Assembly (NCBI GenBank): GCA_965248535.1
Contig: CBDFJR010000005.1
Coordinates: 736,001 to 800,000 of the forward strand
Direction of reading: 5' to 3'
DNA from: Phormidesmis sp.
GTDB taxonomy: Bacteria > Cyanobacteriota > Cyanobacteriia > Leptolyngbyales > Leptolyngbyaceae
DNA: 64,000 bases
The position numbers and the translations under genes were made by a program. The notes beneath the pieces were generated by a model. It had not been told where the DNA came from. It worked only from the letters and a program-made list of their open reading frames with translations, and did no database searches. Below are positions 413-61,749 of the stretch, in pieces; the first letter of the stretch is position 1, and every line of letters begins with the position of its first letter.

Positions 413-2641
413 ATGGCAACTAAATTCCCAAAATTTAGCCAAGACCTTGCCCAAGATCCAACAACCCGTCGGATTTGGTATGGAATCGCTACGGCTCACG
501 ACTTTGAAAGTCATGACGGAATGACGGAAGAGAAGCTTTACCAAAAGCTTTTTGCAACCCACTTCGGTCACTTGGCAATCATCTTCTTGTGGGCATCGGG
601 CAGTCTATTCCACGTAGCTTGGCAAGGCAACTTTCCTCAGTGGATCAAAGATCCGCTGAATGTCCGTCCCATTGCCCACGCGATTTGGGACCCTCAGTTT
701 GGTAAGCCCGCAGTAGAAGCGTTTACTCAAGGTGGCGCTAACTATCCGGTAGACATTTCCTATTCAGGTCTGTATCACTGGTGGTACACGATCGGGATGC
801 GAACCAATGGTGACCTCTATACAGGTTCCATCGGCTTGCTGGTGCTGTCGGCAGTGCTCCTGTTTGCAGGTTGGCTGCACCTTCAGCCCAAGTTCCGTCC
901 TAGCTTGGCTTGGTTTAAAAACGCTGAGTCTCGTCTAAACCACCACTTAGCAGGTCTGTTTGGCGTTAGCTCACTGGCTTGGACGGGTCACCTCGTTCAC
1001 GTCGCCATCCCCGAATCACGCGGTCAGCACGTCGGCTGGGATAACTTCCTGACCACGCTGCCTCACCCGGCTGGGTTGGCTCCCTTTTTCACCGGAAACT
1101 GGGGTGTCTATGCTGAAAACCCTGACACTGCGAACCACATCTTTGGAACGGCTCAAGGGTCAGGCACTGCGATTCTCACCTTCTTAGGTGGCTTCCATCC
1201 TCAAACCGAGTCTCTCTGGTTGACGGATATGGCGCACCACCATTTGGCGATCGCCGTTCTGTTCATCATCGCGGGACACATGTACCGCACCAACTTCGGT
1301 ATCGGTCACAGCATCAAAGATATGCTGGACAGCAAGAAGGGACTAGTGGGCGGCAAGTCAGAGGGGCAGTTTAACCTGCCTCACCAAGGCTTGTATGACA
1401 CGATGAATAACTCTCTACACTTCCAGCTTTCGTTTGCGCTGGCTGCGTTAGGGGTGATCACGTCGCTCGTTGCTCAACATATGTATGCCCTGCCTCCTTA
1501 CGCTTTCATGGCGAAGGATTTCACCACTCAGGCAGCGCTCTACACCCACCACCAGTACATCGCTGGATTCTTGATGGTCGGTGCATTTGCTCACGGTGCT
1601 ATCTTCTGGGTGCGGGACTATGATCCTGAACTCAACAAGGGCAACGTGCTCGATCGGGTTCTCCAGCACAAAGAAGCGATCATCTCGCACTTAAGCTGGG
1701 TGTCTCTGTTCTTGGGCTTCCACACCCTCGGTTTGTATGTTCATAACGACGTGGTGGTTGCTTTCGGAACGCCTGAAAAGCAGATTCTGATTGAGCCTGT
1801 GTTCGCACAGTTTGTTCAAGCTGCGTCAGGTAAAGCGTTGTATGGGATGAGCACGTTGCTCTCAGACCCCACCAGCATCGCCTCGACCGCTTGGCCTAAC
1901 TTCGGCAACGTCTGGCTTCCGGGCTGGCTCGAAGCAGTCAACAGTGGCACCAATTCCCTGTTCCTCACCATTGGGCCAGGCGACTTCTTGGTTCACCATG
2001 CGATCGCTCTCGGTCTGCACACCACCACCTTGGTCTTGGTCAAAGGTGCGTTGGATGCCCGCGGCTCTAAGCTGATGCCCGACAAAAAAGACTTTGGCTA
2101 TAGCTTCCCTTGCGATGGCCCTGGTCGTGGCGGCACCTGCGATATCTCTGCGTGGGATTCTTTCTACCTGGCGATGTTCTGGATGCTGAACACCATTGGT
2201 TGGGTCACCTTCTATTGGCACTGGAAGCATCTGGCTATCTGGTCAGGCAACGTCGCTCAGTTTAACGAAAGCTCAACCTATCTGATGGGTTGGCTGCGTG
2301 ACTACCTGTGGCAATATTCGGCTCCGTTGATCAACGGCTACAACCCTTATGGGATGAATAACCTAGCCGTCTGGTCTTGGATGTTCCTCTTGGGTCACCT
2401 GATCTGGGCAACCGGATTCATGTTCTTGATCTCCTGGAGAGGCTATTGGCAAGAGCTAATCGAAACTCTGGTTTGGGCCCACGAGCGCACTCCTCTGGCG
2501 AACCTGATTCGCTGGAAGGACAAGCCCGTTGCTCTCTCGATCGTGCAAGCTCGCTTGGTGGGTCTAGCTCACTTTACGGTTGGCTATGTCCTCACTTACG
2601 CAGCCTTCGTGATTGCGTCTACTGCGGGTAAGTTTGGTTAA
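413..2641 (+). CDS. psaB: Photosystem I P700 apoprotein A2
   Basis: [22 protein letters not shown] start, FX-binding [12 protein letters not shown] motif, 742 aa; AGGAGG upstream. Confidence 0.99.
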
Positions 2642-2670
2642 ACCTGACTAACGCTGTAGGTAACTAAAAT

Positions 2671-2704
2671 AAAATCCCCTGCCAATTTGGTGGGGGATTT
2701 TTTG
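2671..2704 (+). terminator. Intrinsic terminator of psaAB
   Basis: AAAATCCCCTGCCA...TGGTGGGGGATTTT hairpin running into a T tract, 30 bp after the psaB stop. Confidence 0.85.
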
Positions 2705-2901
2705 ATCTGAACAAAACTGAGGGCGGGTTAGCGACTTTAATCGGTTAATCAAAGGTCAATATCGACACATCGGTAGCATATTCATATTCATAAAGAGCCA
2801 ATCAACTTAATGGGAATTTGAGCGATCGCGGCAACTTTCCCAACTAAATTAATTCCTGAGTGAATGAGCCGTTGGTATAAACACTCAAGCTAAATCAGGA
2901 G

Positions 2902-3351
2902 ATGCAGATGAAACTACTGAAATACTTTGACCTGAATCGACGCGCTAACAAGGCTAGAAAGCTCAACCGCCAAGAATTTACTGAAACCAGAACTAATTTT
3001 ATTCAGCAATGGATGTCGCCTAGCGAAGTCACCGTTAAGCCCCGTAGAGACTTTTTCTTATCACTTTGGATGGTCTTTAACCAACGCGAAGACGGGCAGC
3101 TATCGCTGGCAGATCAACTGCTAATGTATTTAGGGGTACTGGTGGGGGTCTATTTTAGTGGTGTGATTCGTGCTCAGACTTCTAAGCCGACGTTGATCTT
3201 AGCGGCTTTTATTGCCCTCACGATCGTGCCCGTGGCCTTCGAGAAATTGAGCATCAACCCCAAAGCGCCGCTGTTGGTGCGGTTTGGATTGTTTGTGCAA
3301 AATGGCGTGTTTTGGGATGTGATGTTTCAAGCCATCTCCAGCCACCGTTAA
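2902..3351 (+). CDS. Hypothetical membrane protein
   Basis: 149-aa ORF with AGGAG RBS and 2-3 hydrophobic segments in the C-terminal half. Confidence 0.7.
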   Translation: MQMKLLKYFDLNRRANKARKLNRQEFTETRTNFIQQWMSPSEVTVKPRRDFFLSLWMVFNQREDGQLSLADQLLMYLGVLVGVYFSGVIRAQTSKPTLILAAFIALTIVPVAFEKLSINPKAPLLVRFGLFVQNGVFWDVMFQAISSHR

Positions 3352-56151: not shown

Positions 56152-56339
56152 AACATAACGTCAGTCCGACGAGTTTCTCCGCTGCGTTCTCAGCAGCTTC
56201 TGCCCTCTAAATTCTCCCTGAATGGAAGACCTTAAGCCAAGACTAAATTTCTAGTTCAAAGTTCCCGAATTGGGGACTTTAGGGAGCTTCCCGGATTCAC
56301 GATCGCATCCAACTACTTCTGTCAAACGAGGTTTATGTT
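56152..56339. repeat. Decayed palindromic REP/MITE-like element
   Basis: Ends AACATAA / TTATGTT; internal decayed inverted pair CCCTCTAAATTCTCC...GACCTT and AAAGTTCCCGAATTGGGGACTTTAGGGAG. Confidence 0.45.
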
Positions 56340-56341
56340 AA

Positions 56342-56429
56342 GCATAACGTTGCCCATCACCCGCCGCAGATCAACTTTGTAGTATACCGATCAACTCTCG
56401 GCGGTCGGTGTGCAGGGGCGTTGTTATGC
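56342..56429 (-). other. Integron attC site 1 (88 bp)
   Basis: Minus strand: R'' GCATAAC, 5-nt spacer, L'' CCCTGCAC ... L' GTGATGGG, R' GTTATGC, with a long internal palindrome. Confidence 0.85.
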
Positions 56430-56496
56430 AGCGATAAATAACCATGATGTTTCTCCATTTCATAAAACCTGGAAGAGATTCATAACCATCGGCGCA

Positions 56497-56829
56497 TTAT
56501 GATAAAGCAAGCAGCGATAAGTTCTCATCTTCATAAAATAATTTGATCGCGTCAAAATTCTGACGCAGCAAATTTTCAACCTGTGATGTCGAACAATTTC
56601 CAAGACGAAGCCAAATAACTTTCGGTGGATTTCCAGATACTAAGCTCAGGTCGTGCATATCCGCATCTTTCGAGACAATCATCAAATTCTTGTCTTTTGC
56701 ATAATCCCAAACGATTGGATCGATTGTTGCCTTCATGCCCACGTCTCGAACGTGAAGCGAATTTGGGAAAAGATCACTTAAACGATTTGGCAACTTGGGC
56801 GACAAGTTTTCATCAAAAAGCAATTTCAT
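56497..56829 (-). CDS. DUF5615 PIN-like toxin (VapC45-like)
   Basis: MKLLFDENLS...HVRDVG...IVSKDAD...PPKVIWLRLGNCST; ATGA overlap with the upstream gene. Confidence 0.9.
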   Translation of the reverse strand: MKLLFDENLSPKLPNRLSDLFPNSLHVRDVGMKATIDPIVWDYAKDKNLMIVSKDADMHDLSLVSGNPPKVIWLRLGNCSTSQVENLLRQNFDAIKLFYEDENLSLLALS

Positions 56830-57056
56830 GCGGATAGTGGAGCACTCATAAACCGACGCTCACGGTCGGCAGCATAAGCAATACAGGCTTTCAAATCTTC
56901 TCGCGTTAGATCAGGAAAATCGTCGAGAATTTCTGCTTCGGTCATCTCGGAAGCTAGGTACTCAAGCACTTCATAAACCGTAATTCGCAAGCCACGTACA
57001 CAAGGCTTACCACCGCGCTTATCGGGTTCGATCGTGATGTAATTTCGGTAGTTCAT
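56826..57056 (-). CDS. DUF433 antitoxin (VapB45-like)
   Basis: GGKPCVRGLRITVYEVL...EILDDFPDLTREDLKACIAYAA. Confidence 0.92.
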   Translation of the reverse strand: MNYRNYITIEPDKRGGKPCVRGLRITVYEVLEYLASEMTEAEILDDFPDLTREDLKACIAYAADRERRFMSAPLSA

Positions 57057-57115
57057 ATTAAAAGCATCTGAATGTTAATCAAATTGTAGCTTTGCAGTGG
57101 CGACTGATTCGCCCT

Positions 57116-57501
57116 TCACTTTAGATGATTTAGTTTCCACTCTACCCACTCTGTATAAGTTTTAACCTTTGCGGGCGCATCCAAAACCTCAAAGTGCGAC
57201 TTCGGATCAGTCAGCAAGTCCAAAACCAATTCCTCATACTCCTCTCGTGTAATCTCAAAAGGTTTCCACGAGCAACCTCCACTCATCCCAGCATCATATT
57301 GAGCTTTTCCGTCTGGAAAAGCCCATTAGGGAAAAACTCATTGGGCACACCCTGCTTTAACAAGTAACTTAATACATGAAAAGGTGGAATAAATTTATTT
57401 AACACGTAGGGCATCGCAAGTAGCAAATCCTTCAGCGTCCCTCTCGTCCAAATCCCGCCCGCGCAATGCATCGCATAAAGTTTAAAACGCAACTCTCTCA
57501 C
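57116..57501 (-). pseudogene. Cassette-borne hypothetical gene with a 1-bp frameshift near 57320
   Basis: ORF 57283..57501 continues in another frame as FPDGKAQYDAGMSGGCSWKPFEITREEYEELV...KLNHLK* if one T is added to GGGCTTTTCC. Confidence 0.6.
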
Positions 57502-57557
57502 CGAGCGATCGCCTCACCATTTACCTTCAAAAAACTTCCCAAACTACAATCGAAGCG

Positions 57558-58343
57558 GCATAACGACTAAGATAAGCGGCGGCAGATAACCTTTGCATCC
57601 CCACAAAGATCTCGCGCCCGTCCGCTTCATCGACTTGTGTACGCCCAGCATGGGTGTGAACTAATGGGGTGAAAGTCCCCTGTCGGAGAACCAACGTCCA
57701 AATGATCCCAAAAGATCCGAGTGACGACAACGACTAGCTTAAGGTAAGGGCGTTTCCGCGAGGAAGGGTCTGAAGGAAGCCAGCGGCAAATCTGCGAGCT
57801 GACGGACAGAAACGTCATAGAAGGCTGAGATTCCTGTGGCAAGTGAGCACAACATCATGAAGCCTTTTGGTTCAGGGAACACAGTAAATGACGCAGTTGT
57901 GCAGAGACAGTTCACGTTCTTATCTGGGGAGATCTGCTCAAAGGGCGGTCTGAGGGTCTACGGGAGTCTGATTGAGGTCTAGCGGGAAACGGCTAGGGAG
58001 CCACGGAACCCTAAGGACATTCAGGCAGCGTGAGTCATGGCAACAGGACTCATGATTGAGCAGAAGTCAGCAGAGGTCATAGTAGCCAAACACTCACCGT
58101 AATGGGTGAGACAGGGTGAAGGGCTGAACCTTAGAAAGCAGGGAGGAGTTGCAAAGCTCGACTGGGCGATGAACCCGAACGGGGGAGCTATTTTGTCGGC
58201 GCTTAACTGCACAACCAGCCCTGGATATTCAGTTCTATTGAACTGGCTTGTCTAAAACTTTTCTGGGGACGCGCCCCGTGCGGAGCCGCACGCGGGGTGC
58301 CGTGGGGACTGGGGGAGAAAATCCCCTGGTTACCCGATTAGCC
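57558..58343 (-). other. Integron attC site 2, interrupted by the group II intron (57558-57638 plus 58339-58343)
   Basis: With the intron removed, the minus strand reads R'' GGCTAAC-AAGTC-L'' GATGAAG...L' CTTATC-TTAGTC-R' GTTATGC. Confidence 0.88.
57639..58338 (+). mobile_element. Class C (IIC-attC) group II intron lacking an RT ORF, 700 nt
   Basis: 5' GTACGCCCAGCATGGG; IIC landmarks TCTGAAGGAAGC, TTCTTATCTGGGGAGATCTG, GAAGTCAGCAGAGGTCATAGTA; short domain V with CGC triad and AC bulge (58271-58300); domain VI ending ACCCGAT; inserted at TTGT/T. Confidence 0.92.
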
Positions 58344-58366
58344 TGCGTTTGCACTCACGCCGAGAA

Positions 58367-58732
58367 CTATAACTCATCAATCGTTACCAACCCACCTTCT
58401 GTGAACTGGATTACAAGCTCATGCTCGTCTAGCAAAGCAGTTCCAATTAGAGGTCGCCGTCCTGTAGCAAACACACGAGCTTCTCGCTCCTCTCCGTTCC
58501 AAAGAATGATCGCTTTGTGCACTGGCAATATAACTCGGCTGTTATCTGCCAAATTCGCACGCATATCATGTTTGAAAGGAAGATTCAGTAAAGCGACTGC
58601 TTCTGGCGGGAGACAAAGCTCATCTGTAAATCCTGTGTCTACTACAAACTCAACTGGGAAGTCAGCGCGATTGGGAATCCGAAACGGGATGGTAATAATG
58701 GCGTGTCCGTCAGTAACAATACCCGAAATCAC
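58367..58732 (-). CDS. Clan AA (retropepsin-like) aspartic protease, AF_0612-like
   Basis: FVVDTGFTDELCLP catalytic motif, LADNS flap, PLIGTALL; GTG start overlaps the upstream stop. Confidence 0.88.
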   Translation of the reverse strand: MISGIVTDGHAIITIPFRIPNRADFPVEFVVDTGFTDELCLPPEAVALLNLPFKHDMRANLADNSRVILPVHKAIILWNGEEREARVFATGRRPLIGTALLDEHELVIQFTEGGLVTIDEL

Positions 58733-59004
58733 TTAACCACACGCTCCATGACACCACCACTAAAAGCCGCACCAACGTTGTACCCGATTTTGATCCCGAA
58801 GAGTCGGGCATTGGGGTGTTTCTCGCTCAAGTAGTCAGCGGCGCGTAAGCTATTTTCATCAACCTTGTAATCACCTGTCTCAATGTCAATGATGACGATC
58901 TTCCCGATGTTTTCTTCCACTTCCACCTCTTGGCGAATCCTGTCTTCGTATAGTTGCTCTGCACGTTGAGCAACTTCTTCGCGACTTAAAAGGATGGCTT
59001 GCAT
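58729..59004 (-). CDS. Small partner protein of the aspartic protease (91 aa, DUF5678-like)
   Basis: MQAILLSREEVAQRAEQLYE...GKIVIIDIETGDY...HPNARLFGIKIGY; the start at 59004 avoids overlap with the upstream gene. Confidence 0.75.
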   Translation of the reverse strand: MQAILLSREEVAQRAEQLYEDRIRQEVEVEENIGKIVIIDIETGDYKVDENSLRAADYLSEKHPNARLFGIKIGYNVGAAFSGGVMERVVK

Positions 59005-61635: not shown

Positions 61636-61749
61636 GGCTAACGATTGAGTTGAACCGCACCAAATCAATCAAGCAACACCAACTTTAGTTGGTAGTGCGG
61701 TTAACCTTACGACTATTTGTAGCGTGTCGGTTCCAACGAAATGTTCTAC
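61636..61749 (-). other. Integron attC site 3 (114 bp)
   Basis: Minus strand: R'' GTAGAAC-ATTTC-L'' GTTGGAACCG ... L' CGGTTCAAC-TCAATC-R' GTTAGCC; L'' carries the characteristic extra G. Confidence 0.8.

Follow-up and report, generated by a model that had tools for sequence, protein, structure and literature searches.

An ORF-less class C group II intron in an attC bottom strand, repeated in the attC sites of one cyanobacterial genome

How can a group II intron that has no gene for a reverse transcriptase (RT) come to sit precisely inside an attC site, and what follows from its presence for the adjoining cassettes? This question is raised by a small cassette array in the window, i.e. the whole stretch of 64,000 nt from Phormidesmis sp. 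that was analysed here. The window contains no integrase gene, and one of the attC sites of its array is interrupted on the + strand by 700 nt at positions 57639-58338.

These 700 nt are a complete group II ribozyme with domains I to VI and without an RT gene. A search of Rfam, which the original prediction had proposed as a check, gave three matches on the + strand, each of them above its curated cut-off, and together with two elements read from the sequence they define the layout given in Table 1. Domain V is built of 9 bp, an AC bulge at 58290-58291 and then 3 bp, with a GAGC loop at 58283-58286, and its triad is CGC (58272-58274) with the usual G-U wobble. In domain VI, the branch-point A is bulged and lies at 58332, at a distance of seven bases from the intron's 3' end. 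The consensus ends of group II introns are given as 5' GUGYG and 3' AY (PMC7923331), and while the intron's 5' end, GUACG, departs from this consensus, its 3' end ACCCGAT, with the GAU at 58336-58338, fits. The landmarks of the IIC type that had been recognized from the letters alone, namely the paired domain V, the AC bulge, the CGC triad and the terminal ACCCGAT, thus all lie where they had been placed. The MFE fold of the whole 700 nt has a z-score of -4.2 but does not yield a textbook six-domain drawing, and the ribozyme call therefore rests on Rfam and on covariation rather than on this whole-element fold.

Covariation was assessed for D5-D6 in an alignment of 12 sequences, comprising four ORF-less forms, seven RT-associated cyanobacterial forms and an intron from Enterobacter. 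Over both domains, 96.2% of the cells are paired, 15 of the 25 pairs have changed on both sides, and there are 54 double-change cells. For D5 alone, 99.3% of the cells are paired and 5 of the 12 pairs have changed on both sides, and for D6 alone the values are 93.5% and 10 of 13. None of 500 shuffles reached such a level, and slid partners gave only 47-55%. Compensatory change has therefore preserved the fold of the ribozyme, and with it the short distal helix of domain V. The CGC triad is invariant in all 11 rows of this alignment that have letters there.

The ORF list holds no + strand ORF of at least 50 aa inside 57639-58338, and the D1D4-1 match is separated from D5 by only 145 nt; with no such ORF and about 145 nt in front of domain V, the element encodes no RT. 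That domain IV is only about 140 nt long and that no RT is encoded had been part of the original prediction, and the Rfam spacing, the ORF list and the alignment of D4 all bear this out. Within domain IV, a ribosome-binding site and the initial codons of an RT ORF can still be recognized, as 58142-58188 can be aligned with this region of an RT-bearing intron in the same genome (L020 485-533), and likewise with the corresponding part of an intron in another genome (G346). The short form is thus a deletion derivative. In studied group II introns, it is this retained part of domain IV to which the RT binds.

Table 1. Features of the intron, of the attC sites and of the neighbouring cassettes (positions in the window).
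Feature	Positions	Strand	Basis
5' splice-site motif GUACG (DNA GTACG)	57639-57643	+	read from sequence
Domain I core	57752-57918	+	RF02001 (group-II-D1D4-3) match, 127.8 bits, E 6e-26 (cut-off 32)
EBS1 ACAAC, loop of hairpin 57843-57859	57849-57853	+	read from sequence
Domains II/III region	58029-58124	+	RF01998 (group-II-D1D4-1) match, 63.7 bits, E 4e-9 (cut-off 35)
Domain IV remnant, ~140 nt	58129-58270	+	alignment to RT-bearing relatives
Domain V, 30 nt	58271-58300	+	RF00029 (Intron_gpII, D5/D6) match at 58269-58338, 43.5 bits (cut-off 40); covariation in 12 relatives
Domain VI	58304-58335	+	same RF00029 match; covariation
attC split by the intron, 5' part to 57638	57551-57638	+	R1, 62.7 bits, E 5e-15
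Remainder of attC R'' box, TAGCCTGC; T58339 = IBS3	58339-58346	+	sequence; joined-flank fold
Intact neighbouring attC (bottom strand), closes next cassette	56335-56436	+	R1, 54.8 bits, E 9e-13
Weaker attC-like site, other array end	61640-61745	+	R1, 24.4 bits, E 3e-4
Last two ORFs (121 aa, ~90 aa) of cassette with split attC	58367-59001	-	ORF list
Downstream cassette: 72-aa and 56-aa ORFs, then DUF433/DUF5615 pair	56497-57501	-	ORF list; Pfam

The genome to which the window belongs (5.03 Mb in 5 contigs, 99.76% complete) contains many sites of the kind that the intron has entered. An nhmmer profile of the 90 nt upstream of seven intron copies detected 29 attC-like sites in this genome (E<1e-3), of which 8 are directly followed by an intron and 21 are not; the site in the window was found with an E-value of 3e-19, and in the 21 intron-free sites GTTGT/TAKRC is uninterrupted. 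Nineteen empty attC sites of the same genome that align well were used for a covariance model, R1. In the alignment of these 19 sites, 82.7% of the cells are paired, as compared to 28-39% with slid partners, and there are 53 double-change cells, values that were reached by 0 of 500 shuffles. The hairpin has the parts of an attC, i.e. an R box (RYYYAAC/GTTRRRY), a short unpaired spacer, an L box with extra bases on its 3' arm, and a variable loop. R1 identifies three attC sites in the window, all on the + strand. In the interrupted one, the part upstream of the intron contains R' (GCATAAC, ~57558-57564), the unpaired spacer, L', the variable loop, L'' and the first GT of R''. IBS1, TTGT, is at 57635-57638, and the 3' flank begins with TAGCC at 58339-58343. 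When the two flanks are joined, they fold with -16.5 kcal/mol (z -2.4), and 57561-57565 pair with 57636-57638 and 58339-58340, i.e. the R box spans the insertion point. With TTGT/TAGCC flanks, a joined attC that folds, and uninterrupted empty sites, the precise insertion at TTGT/T that had been proposed from the sequence is confirmed.

That these sites are attC sites, and that the intron is in their bottom strand, is supported from several directions. In a class 1 integron that served as positive control, R1 matches the attC of aadA1 (35.4 bits) and the attC that adjoins an intron (21.1 bits), in both cases on the strand opposite to the cassettes. The cyanobacterial genome has two integron integrase genes (TIGR02249, 468 and 466 bits at a cut-off of 265, which was passed by none of 14 control genomes) with arrays beside both, and near both genes the model strand is again the opposite of the expected cassette direction. 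As the cassette ORFs in the window are on the - strand, and given the strand of the attC sites relative to the integrase genes, the intron lies in the bottom strand and is antisense to the cassettes. The original assignment to an attC bottom strand is therefore corroborated by R1, by the nhmmer search, by the integrase genes and by the class 1 integron control. A hairpin repeat other than attC was considered as a target and rejected in view of the covariation in the 19 sites, the integrase-linked arrays and the match to the aadA1 attC. As a separate observation, attC-like sites of identical score (26.2 bits) are found about 300 nt from the start of each integrase gene (C2:161068-161183, L021 1082-1197, and C2:1132826-1132941, L022 2746-2861), which suggests that the two integron platforms are duplicates of each other.

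Since the intron in the window has no protein, and hence lacks the RT devoid of an endonuclease domain that marks class C, its class had to be assigned via its relatives and via similarity of the RNA. Among RTs of solved structure, the RT of the sister intron in the same genome has its best match in the RT of GsI-IIC (331 bits), as compared to 82 bits against LtrA (IIA) and 73 bits against a IIB RT, in agreement with the class C that the original prediction had named. The same RT scores 260 bits against a chain that is annotated only as group II intron RT/maturase, and which we take to be a IIC RT. At the DNA level, nt 1-511 of the intron are 67-77% identical to introns on 372 plasmid records, mostly from Klebsiella, Escherichia, Citrobacter and Enterobacter, and nt 1-510 can be aligned without a break to an RT-bearing intron of a class 1 integron (68% identity). 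One of the plasmid introns, from Enterobacter, was inspected; it belongs to a class 1 integron with adjoining intI1, in which it lies between the cassettes dfrA14 and arr-2 in antisense orientation. It starts with GTACGCCCAGCATGGG after ...TTTGT, ends with ACCCGAT before TAACC, and has the same 30-nt D5. Features listed for IIC introns are the CGC triad, an IBS1 of 3-4 nt together with IBS3, and a hairpin that replaces IBS2, and IIC-attC introns are described to insert at TTGT/T within R'' of the attC bottom strand (PMC7923331). The intron in the window has the CGC triad, the short IBS1 with IBS3, the upstream hairpin, and TTGT/T in R'' of the bottom strand.

The start of the intron had been regarded as unusual, GTACG standing in the place of GTGYG. 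The motif is real, but it is not an anomaly: GTACG is found in 9 of 10 relatives, the Enterobacter integron intron included, and published primers have G.s.I1 and Sh.ba.I2 starting with GTACGCCC (PMC3001079), so that GTACG can be considered the norm of this lineage and the usual 5' end of IIC-attC introns. The EBS1 loop, GCACAAC, is kept in five of the six relatives for which this region was recovered (10 were examined), with GCACAAG in the Enterobacter intron, and the 5' exons of all 10 relatives end with TGT or AGT. The ACAA of EBS1 is complementary to the TTGT at the end of the 5' exon, and T58339 corresponds to IBS3; judged by this complementarity, EBS1 (ACAA) would pair with IBS1 (TTGT). 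The RTs of IIC-attC introns are reported to form a monophyletic clade (PMC3001079). With ltrA of class 1 integron introns, the sister intron's RT shares 53% identity, and with six other cyanobacterial RTs, the genes of which have no adjoining attC according to model R1, it shares 41-50%.

A search of the genome for identical short copies, which had been recommended together with the original prediction, revealed that the 700-nt form occurs six times at 100% identity, namely at C5:933035, in the window, and at C5:44914, C2:1136164, C2:1133221 and C2:156856. A seventh ORF-less copy is 99% identical and has a damaged 5' junction (C2:609290), and an eighth and last one of 698 nt is 85% identical (C5:1939398). 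In addition, there are the one RT-bearing relative and one 130-nt fragment. All nine complete elements are preceded by an attC-like arm that ends with TGT or TGC and are followed by TAKRC or TGGGC, and three copies are no more than a few kb away from the two integrase genes. The attC sequences differ from copy to copy, and the identity starts and stops at the intron borders. Identity that is confined to the intron borders, with differing attC arms, is the signature of reverse splicing. The short form has probably multiplied recently in this genome. Elsewhere in the genome, a D5/D6 match of 45.9 bits at C5:1439336-1439412 (L012 1501-1577) falls into a stretch of 1 kb that separates a deacetylase-like ORF from another gene. 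Neither a D1-D4 Rfam match nor an RT was found near it, and it may represent a further ORF-less intron that belongs to a different class.

The short form is also present in other cyanobacteria. A genome from a different family (G089) carries the same derivative with the same D4 remnant, at 77% identity and with compensatory changes in D5. Plasmid pA of Kovacikia minuta CCNUW1 also shows this D4 remnant and has three full 698-nt copies (87% identity) and three partial ones, with an attC immediately in front of one of these elements; on this plasmid, which was searched by itself, neither a class C RT nor an integron integrase scored above cut-off. Among 400 sampled other genomes of the phylum, 8 gave matches at E<=1e-5. 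In the copy of G089 (L046 240-420, G089:C103), about 90 nt of domain II are duplicated internally, and the split of this copy over two contigs hints at several copies in that genome.

RNA libraries give a further view of the site. In two runs of one study, contigs of a relative of the neighbouring cassette with about 92% identity join the base corresponding to 57638 directly to the remainder of R'', without an intron. As the intron is antisense to the cassette mRNA, the simplest reading is that these contigs represent an empty allele, although contigs of spliced RNA would look alike. Pieces of the intron with 90-100% identity were found in all four runs that were compared. The X1 contigs break at the intron borders, as repeats do, and they therefore speak neither for nor against an occupied site in that organism.

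Where, then, is the RT that could have moved these copies? The RT-bearing intron of this genome (C2:1673018-1675016; L020 1-1999) is 79% identical to the intron in the window over nt 1-447, and it, too, occupies an attC. A 52-nt direct repeat with a spacing of 79 nt breaks its class C RT gene into two frames (L020 494-1012 and 922-1899), and the two copies of this repeat already differ from each other; this duplication was found by a repeat search and is absent from the output of Tandem Repeats Finder. D5 of this intron still pairs in the alignment, and Rfam gave no D5 score for it at E up to 0.01. An ORF of an IS-type transposase starts about 700 nt downstream of this intron. In the whole genome, PF08388 has one locus and PF00078 has two, and the second RT, a protein of 373 aa, has RVT_1 only and no maturase domain; the PF08388 and PF00078 searches thus revealed no intact class C helper RT in this genome. 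The RT-bearing parent that had been sought after the original prediction has therefore been found only in part, as a relative exists, but with no more than 79% identity and with a broken RT gene. Because the only related RT gene of the genome is broken, the family is at present probably stranded in this genome. For six identical copies without a visible working helper, a recent loss of the helper, a helper elsewhere in the population, or gene conversion are possible explanations.

Related RT genes are also found in other genomes. The one of G346 is intact (446 aa, 72% identical), but the element to which it belongs (L057, G346:C45, - strand, ~1393-3089) has only 254 nt from the intron's 5' end up to the start codon, as compared to 493 nt in the RT-bearing intron of the genome studied here. 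Its ribozyme is therefore truncated, with much of domains I-III missing, and this element can be viewed as an RT-only counterpart to the RT-less short form. Four stops interrupt the related RT gene of G089, and that of G158 is fragmented. The short form thus outlives its helpers.

We consider it quite likely that the element is a non-autonomous derivative of an IIC-attC intron, i.e. an intron that has kept a complete ribozyme, has lost its RT gene, and needs an RT in trans. In such a mechanism, the intron RNA would recognize the folded bottom strand of attC by means of the upstream hairpin and by pairing of EBS1 with TTGT and of EBS3 with T. It would then reverse-splice into the single-stranded DNA between the GT and the T of R'', and the RT of a related full-length intron, supplied in trans, would copy the inserted intron into DNA. 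Two origins had been proposed together with the original prediction, a non-autonomous mini-intron that is moved by an RT encoded elsewhere, or a deletion after the insertion, and the former is now favoured over the latter by the six identical copies and by the occurrence in other cyanobacteria. It could be argued that a full-length intron inserted at this very site, that a local deletion then removed its RT gene, and that the short form never moved. A deletion did occur once, since the beginning of the RT ORF survives in the D4 remnant. However, six attC sites of differing sequence hold the 700-nt form at 100% identity, and the same remnant recurs in G089 and in Kovacikia, for which independent identical deletions are not credible. 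Six identical copies in different attC sites rule out a relic that arose in situ and favour an RT supplied in trans, and the dead relic is thus highly improbable.

A spread or homogenization at the level of the DNA, by shuffling of cassettes by the integrase, by homologous recombination or by gene conversion, would not require recent retromobility, and the short form could then have been immobile for a long time. The genome indeed has no intact class C RT, there is paralogy among some of the cassettes that adjoin introns, as the copy at C2:1133221 and the RT-bearing intron have similar 3' flanks, and gene conversion among 700-nt repeats is plausible. Yet gene conversion homogenizes and does not create precise insertions, the identity ends exactly at the intron borders next to differing attC arms, and the copies with 99% and 85% identity have not been homogenized, all of which makes this explanation improbable. 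It has also to be considered that the host keeps the intron for a function, be it that cassettes are locked by it, or that its transcript or an internal promoter acts on neighbouring cassettes. For IIC-attC introns, outward promoters that may drive the next cassette have been described, as in S.ma.I2 (PMC3001079), and the ORF-less form has survived in several families of cyanobacteria while the RT genes decayed. A simple sigma-70 scan of 57300-58800 yielded a single promoter-like site, at 58671 on the + strand, and the intron's - strand yielded none, but as this count equals the level of shuffled sequences (mean 1.0), the scan is uninformative. The compensatory changes in D5/D6 point to selection on the ribozyme fold, as expected of a mobile element, and we therefore regard a function for the host as unlikely.

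IIC-attC introns as such are well known, and the element described here is a non-autonomous variant of them. With those of Serratia marcescens (S.ma.I2) and of enterobacterial plasmids it shares the TTGT/T site in the attC bottom strand and the antisense orientation (PMC3001079, PMC7923331), as well as the GTACG start, the CGC triad, the 30-nt domain V and the ACCCGAT end. It differs from them in the lack of an RT gene, in the six identical copies in one genome, and in its host, a cyanobacterium whose integrons are chromosomal and whose attC clusters are scattered, in place of a clinical class 1 integron. The literature that was searched, from which several key papers on the lineage were absent, mentions neither an ORF-less IIC-attC intron nor IIC-attC introns in cyanobacteria.

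A parallel comes from another class of introns. The ORF-less introns of Thermosynechococcus elongatus home into specific sequence sites. These group II introns are reported to be moved or spliced in trans by the RTs of related introns, and ORF-less bacterial introns that use the RT of a relative are known, although they are called rare (PMC4424553). Common to both systems are the cyanobacterial host, ORF-deleted derivatives beside RT-bearing relatives, and many near-identical copies. The introns of T. elongatus are of the chloroplast-like class, whereas the intron in the window is of class C, targets a DNA hairpin (attC), and has a broken helper RT. A further parallel is offered by introns in arrays of halophiles (UHB.F1, UHB.I2, H.ha.F1/F2), which share the attC sites, the antisense orientation and arrays rich in toxin-antitoxin genes, and some of which are located in arrays without a nearby integrase, like the array in the window. 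The halophile introns described there are 5'-truncated fragments or IIB introns with an RT gene (PMC7923331), in contrast to the complete ribozyme, the clean RT deletion and the multiple copies observed here.

What does the insertion mean for the array? As the R'' half-site has been moved 700 nt away from R', the R box would no longer form as before, and the attC should hence be unusable. As had reasonably been proposed in the original prediction, we infer that the insertion should stop the use of this attC by the integrase and weld the flanking cassettes together, so that the cassette ending at 58367 and the one starting at 57501 should behave as one unit. If an occupied attC cannot recombine, about a quarter of the detected sites are locked and the adjoining cassettes are fixed in the chromosome. 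Furthermore, as gene callers miss such introns, cassette arrays seem to have long 'intergenic' gaps. At the junction itself, the insertion has produced the sequence TTGT-G-TACGCC (57635-57650), which apart from an additional G looks like an intact R'' (TTGT-TAKGCC). Model R1 places the intron's opening bases (G-TACGCC) on the R'' positions that are missing; this likeness may be due to chance or may be a partial mimic of R''.

Going beyond this single genome, we tentatively put forward the idea, which for the time being appears doubtful rather than probable, that cyanobacteria carry an old, SINE-like lineage of gutted IIC-attC introns that shares one deletion junction, endures across families as full-length relatives lose their RT genes to decay, uses any related RT, occupies at least a quarter of the attC sites of a genome and controls the cassettes. 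Such a lineage could use RT genes that are left on elements with a truncated ribozyme, as in G346, and it would control which cassettes an integron still moves. In a bolder extension, the lineage-specific GTACGCC start may partly rebuild R'' once the intron has inserted, so that an occupied attC stays usable and the intron travels with its cassette. In any case, the genome constitutes a natural system for the trans-mobilization of a hairpin-targeting intron, as it combines short copies, six identical and one older, with an RT-bearing copy that has decayed and some twenty attC sites that are empty, and it is also suited for asking which effect intron occupancy has on integron dynamics.

The cassettes on both sides of the intron complete the description of the locus. 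The stop codon of the cassette with the split attC is 20 nt away from R''. In the downstream cassette, the pair at 56497-57056 was assigned by Pfam to DUF433 (87 bits) and DUF5615 (PIN-like, 121 bits). Such a DUF433/DUF5615 pair is characteristic of the toxin-antitoxin cassettes of chromosomal arrays. Eight cassette ORFs were compared with Pfam, four of which (121, 90, 72 and 56 aa) had no family at E up to 0.001, and a first guess that the 121-aa ORF encodes a retropepsin-like protease was dropped, as it has no Pfam support. Finally, an octamer, GCGATCGC, occurs 58 times in the whole window as compared to 1.3 occurrences expected by chance, and it is presumably the HIP1 signature of cyanobacteria.
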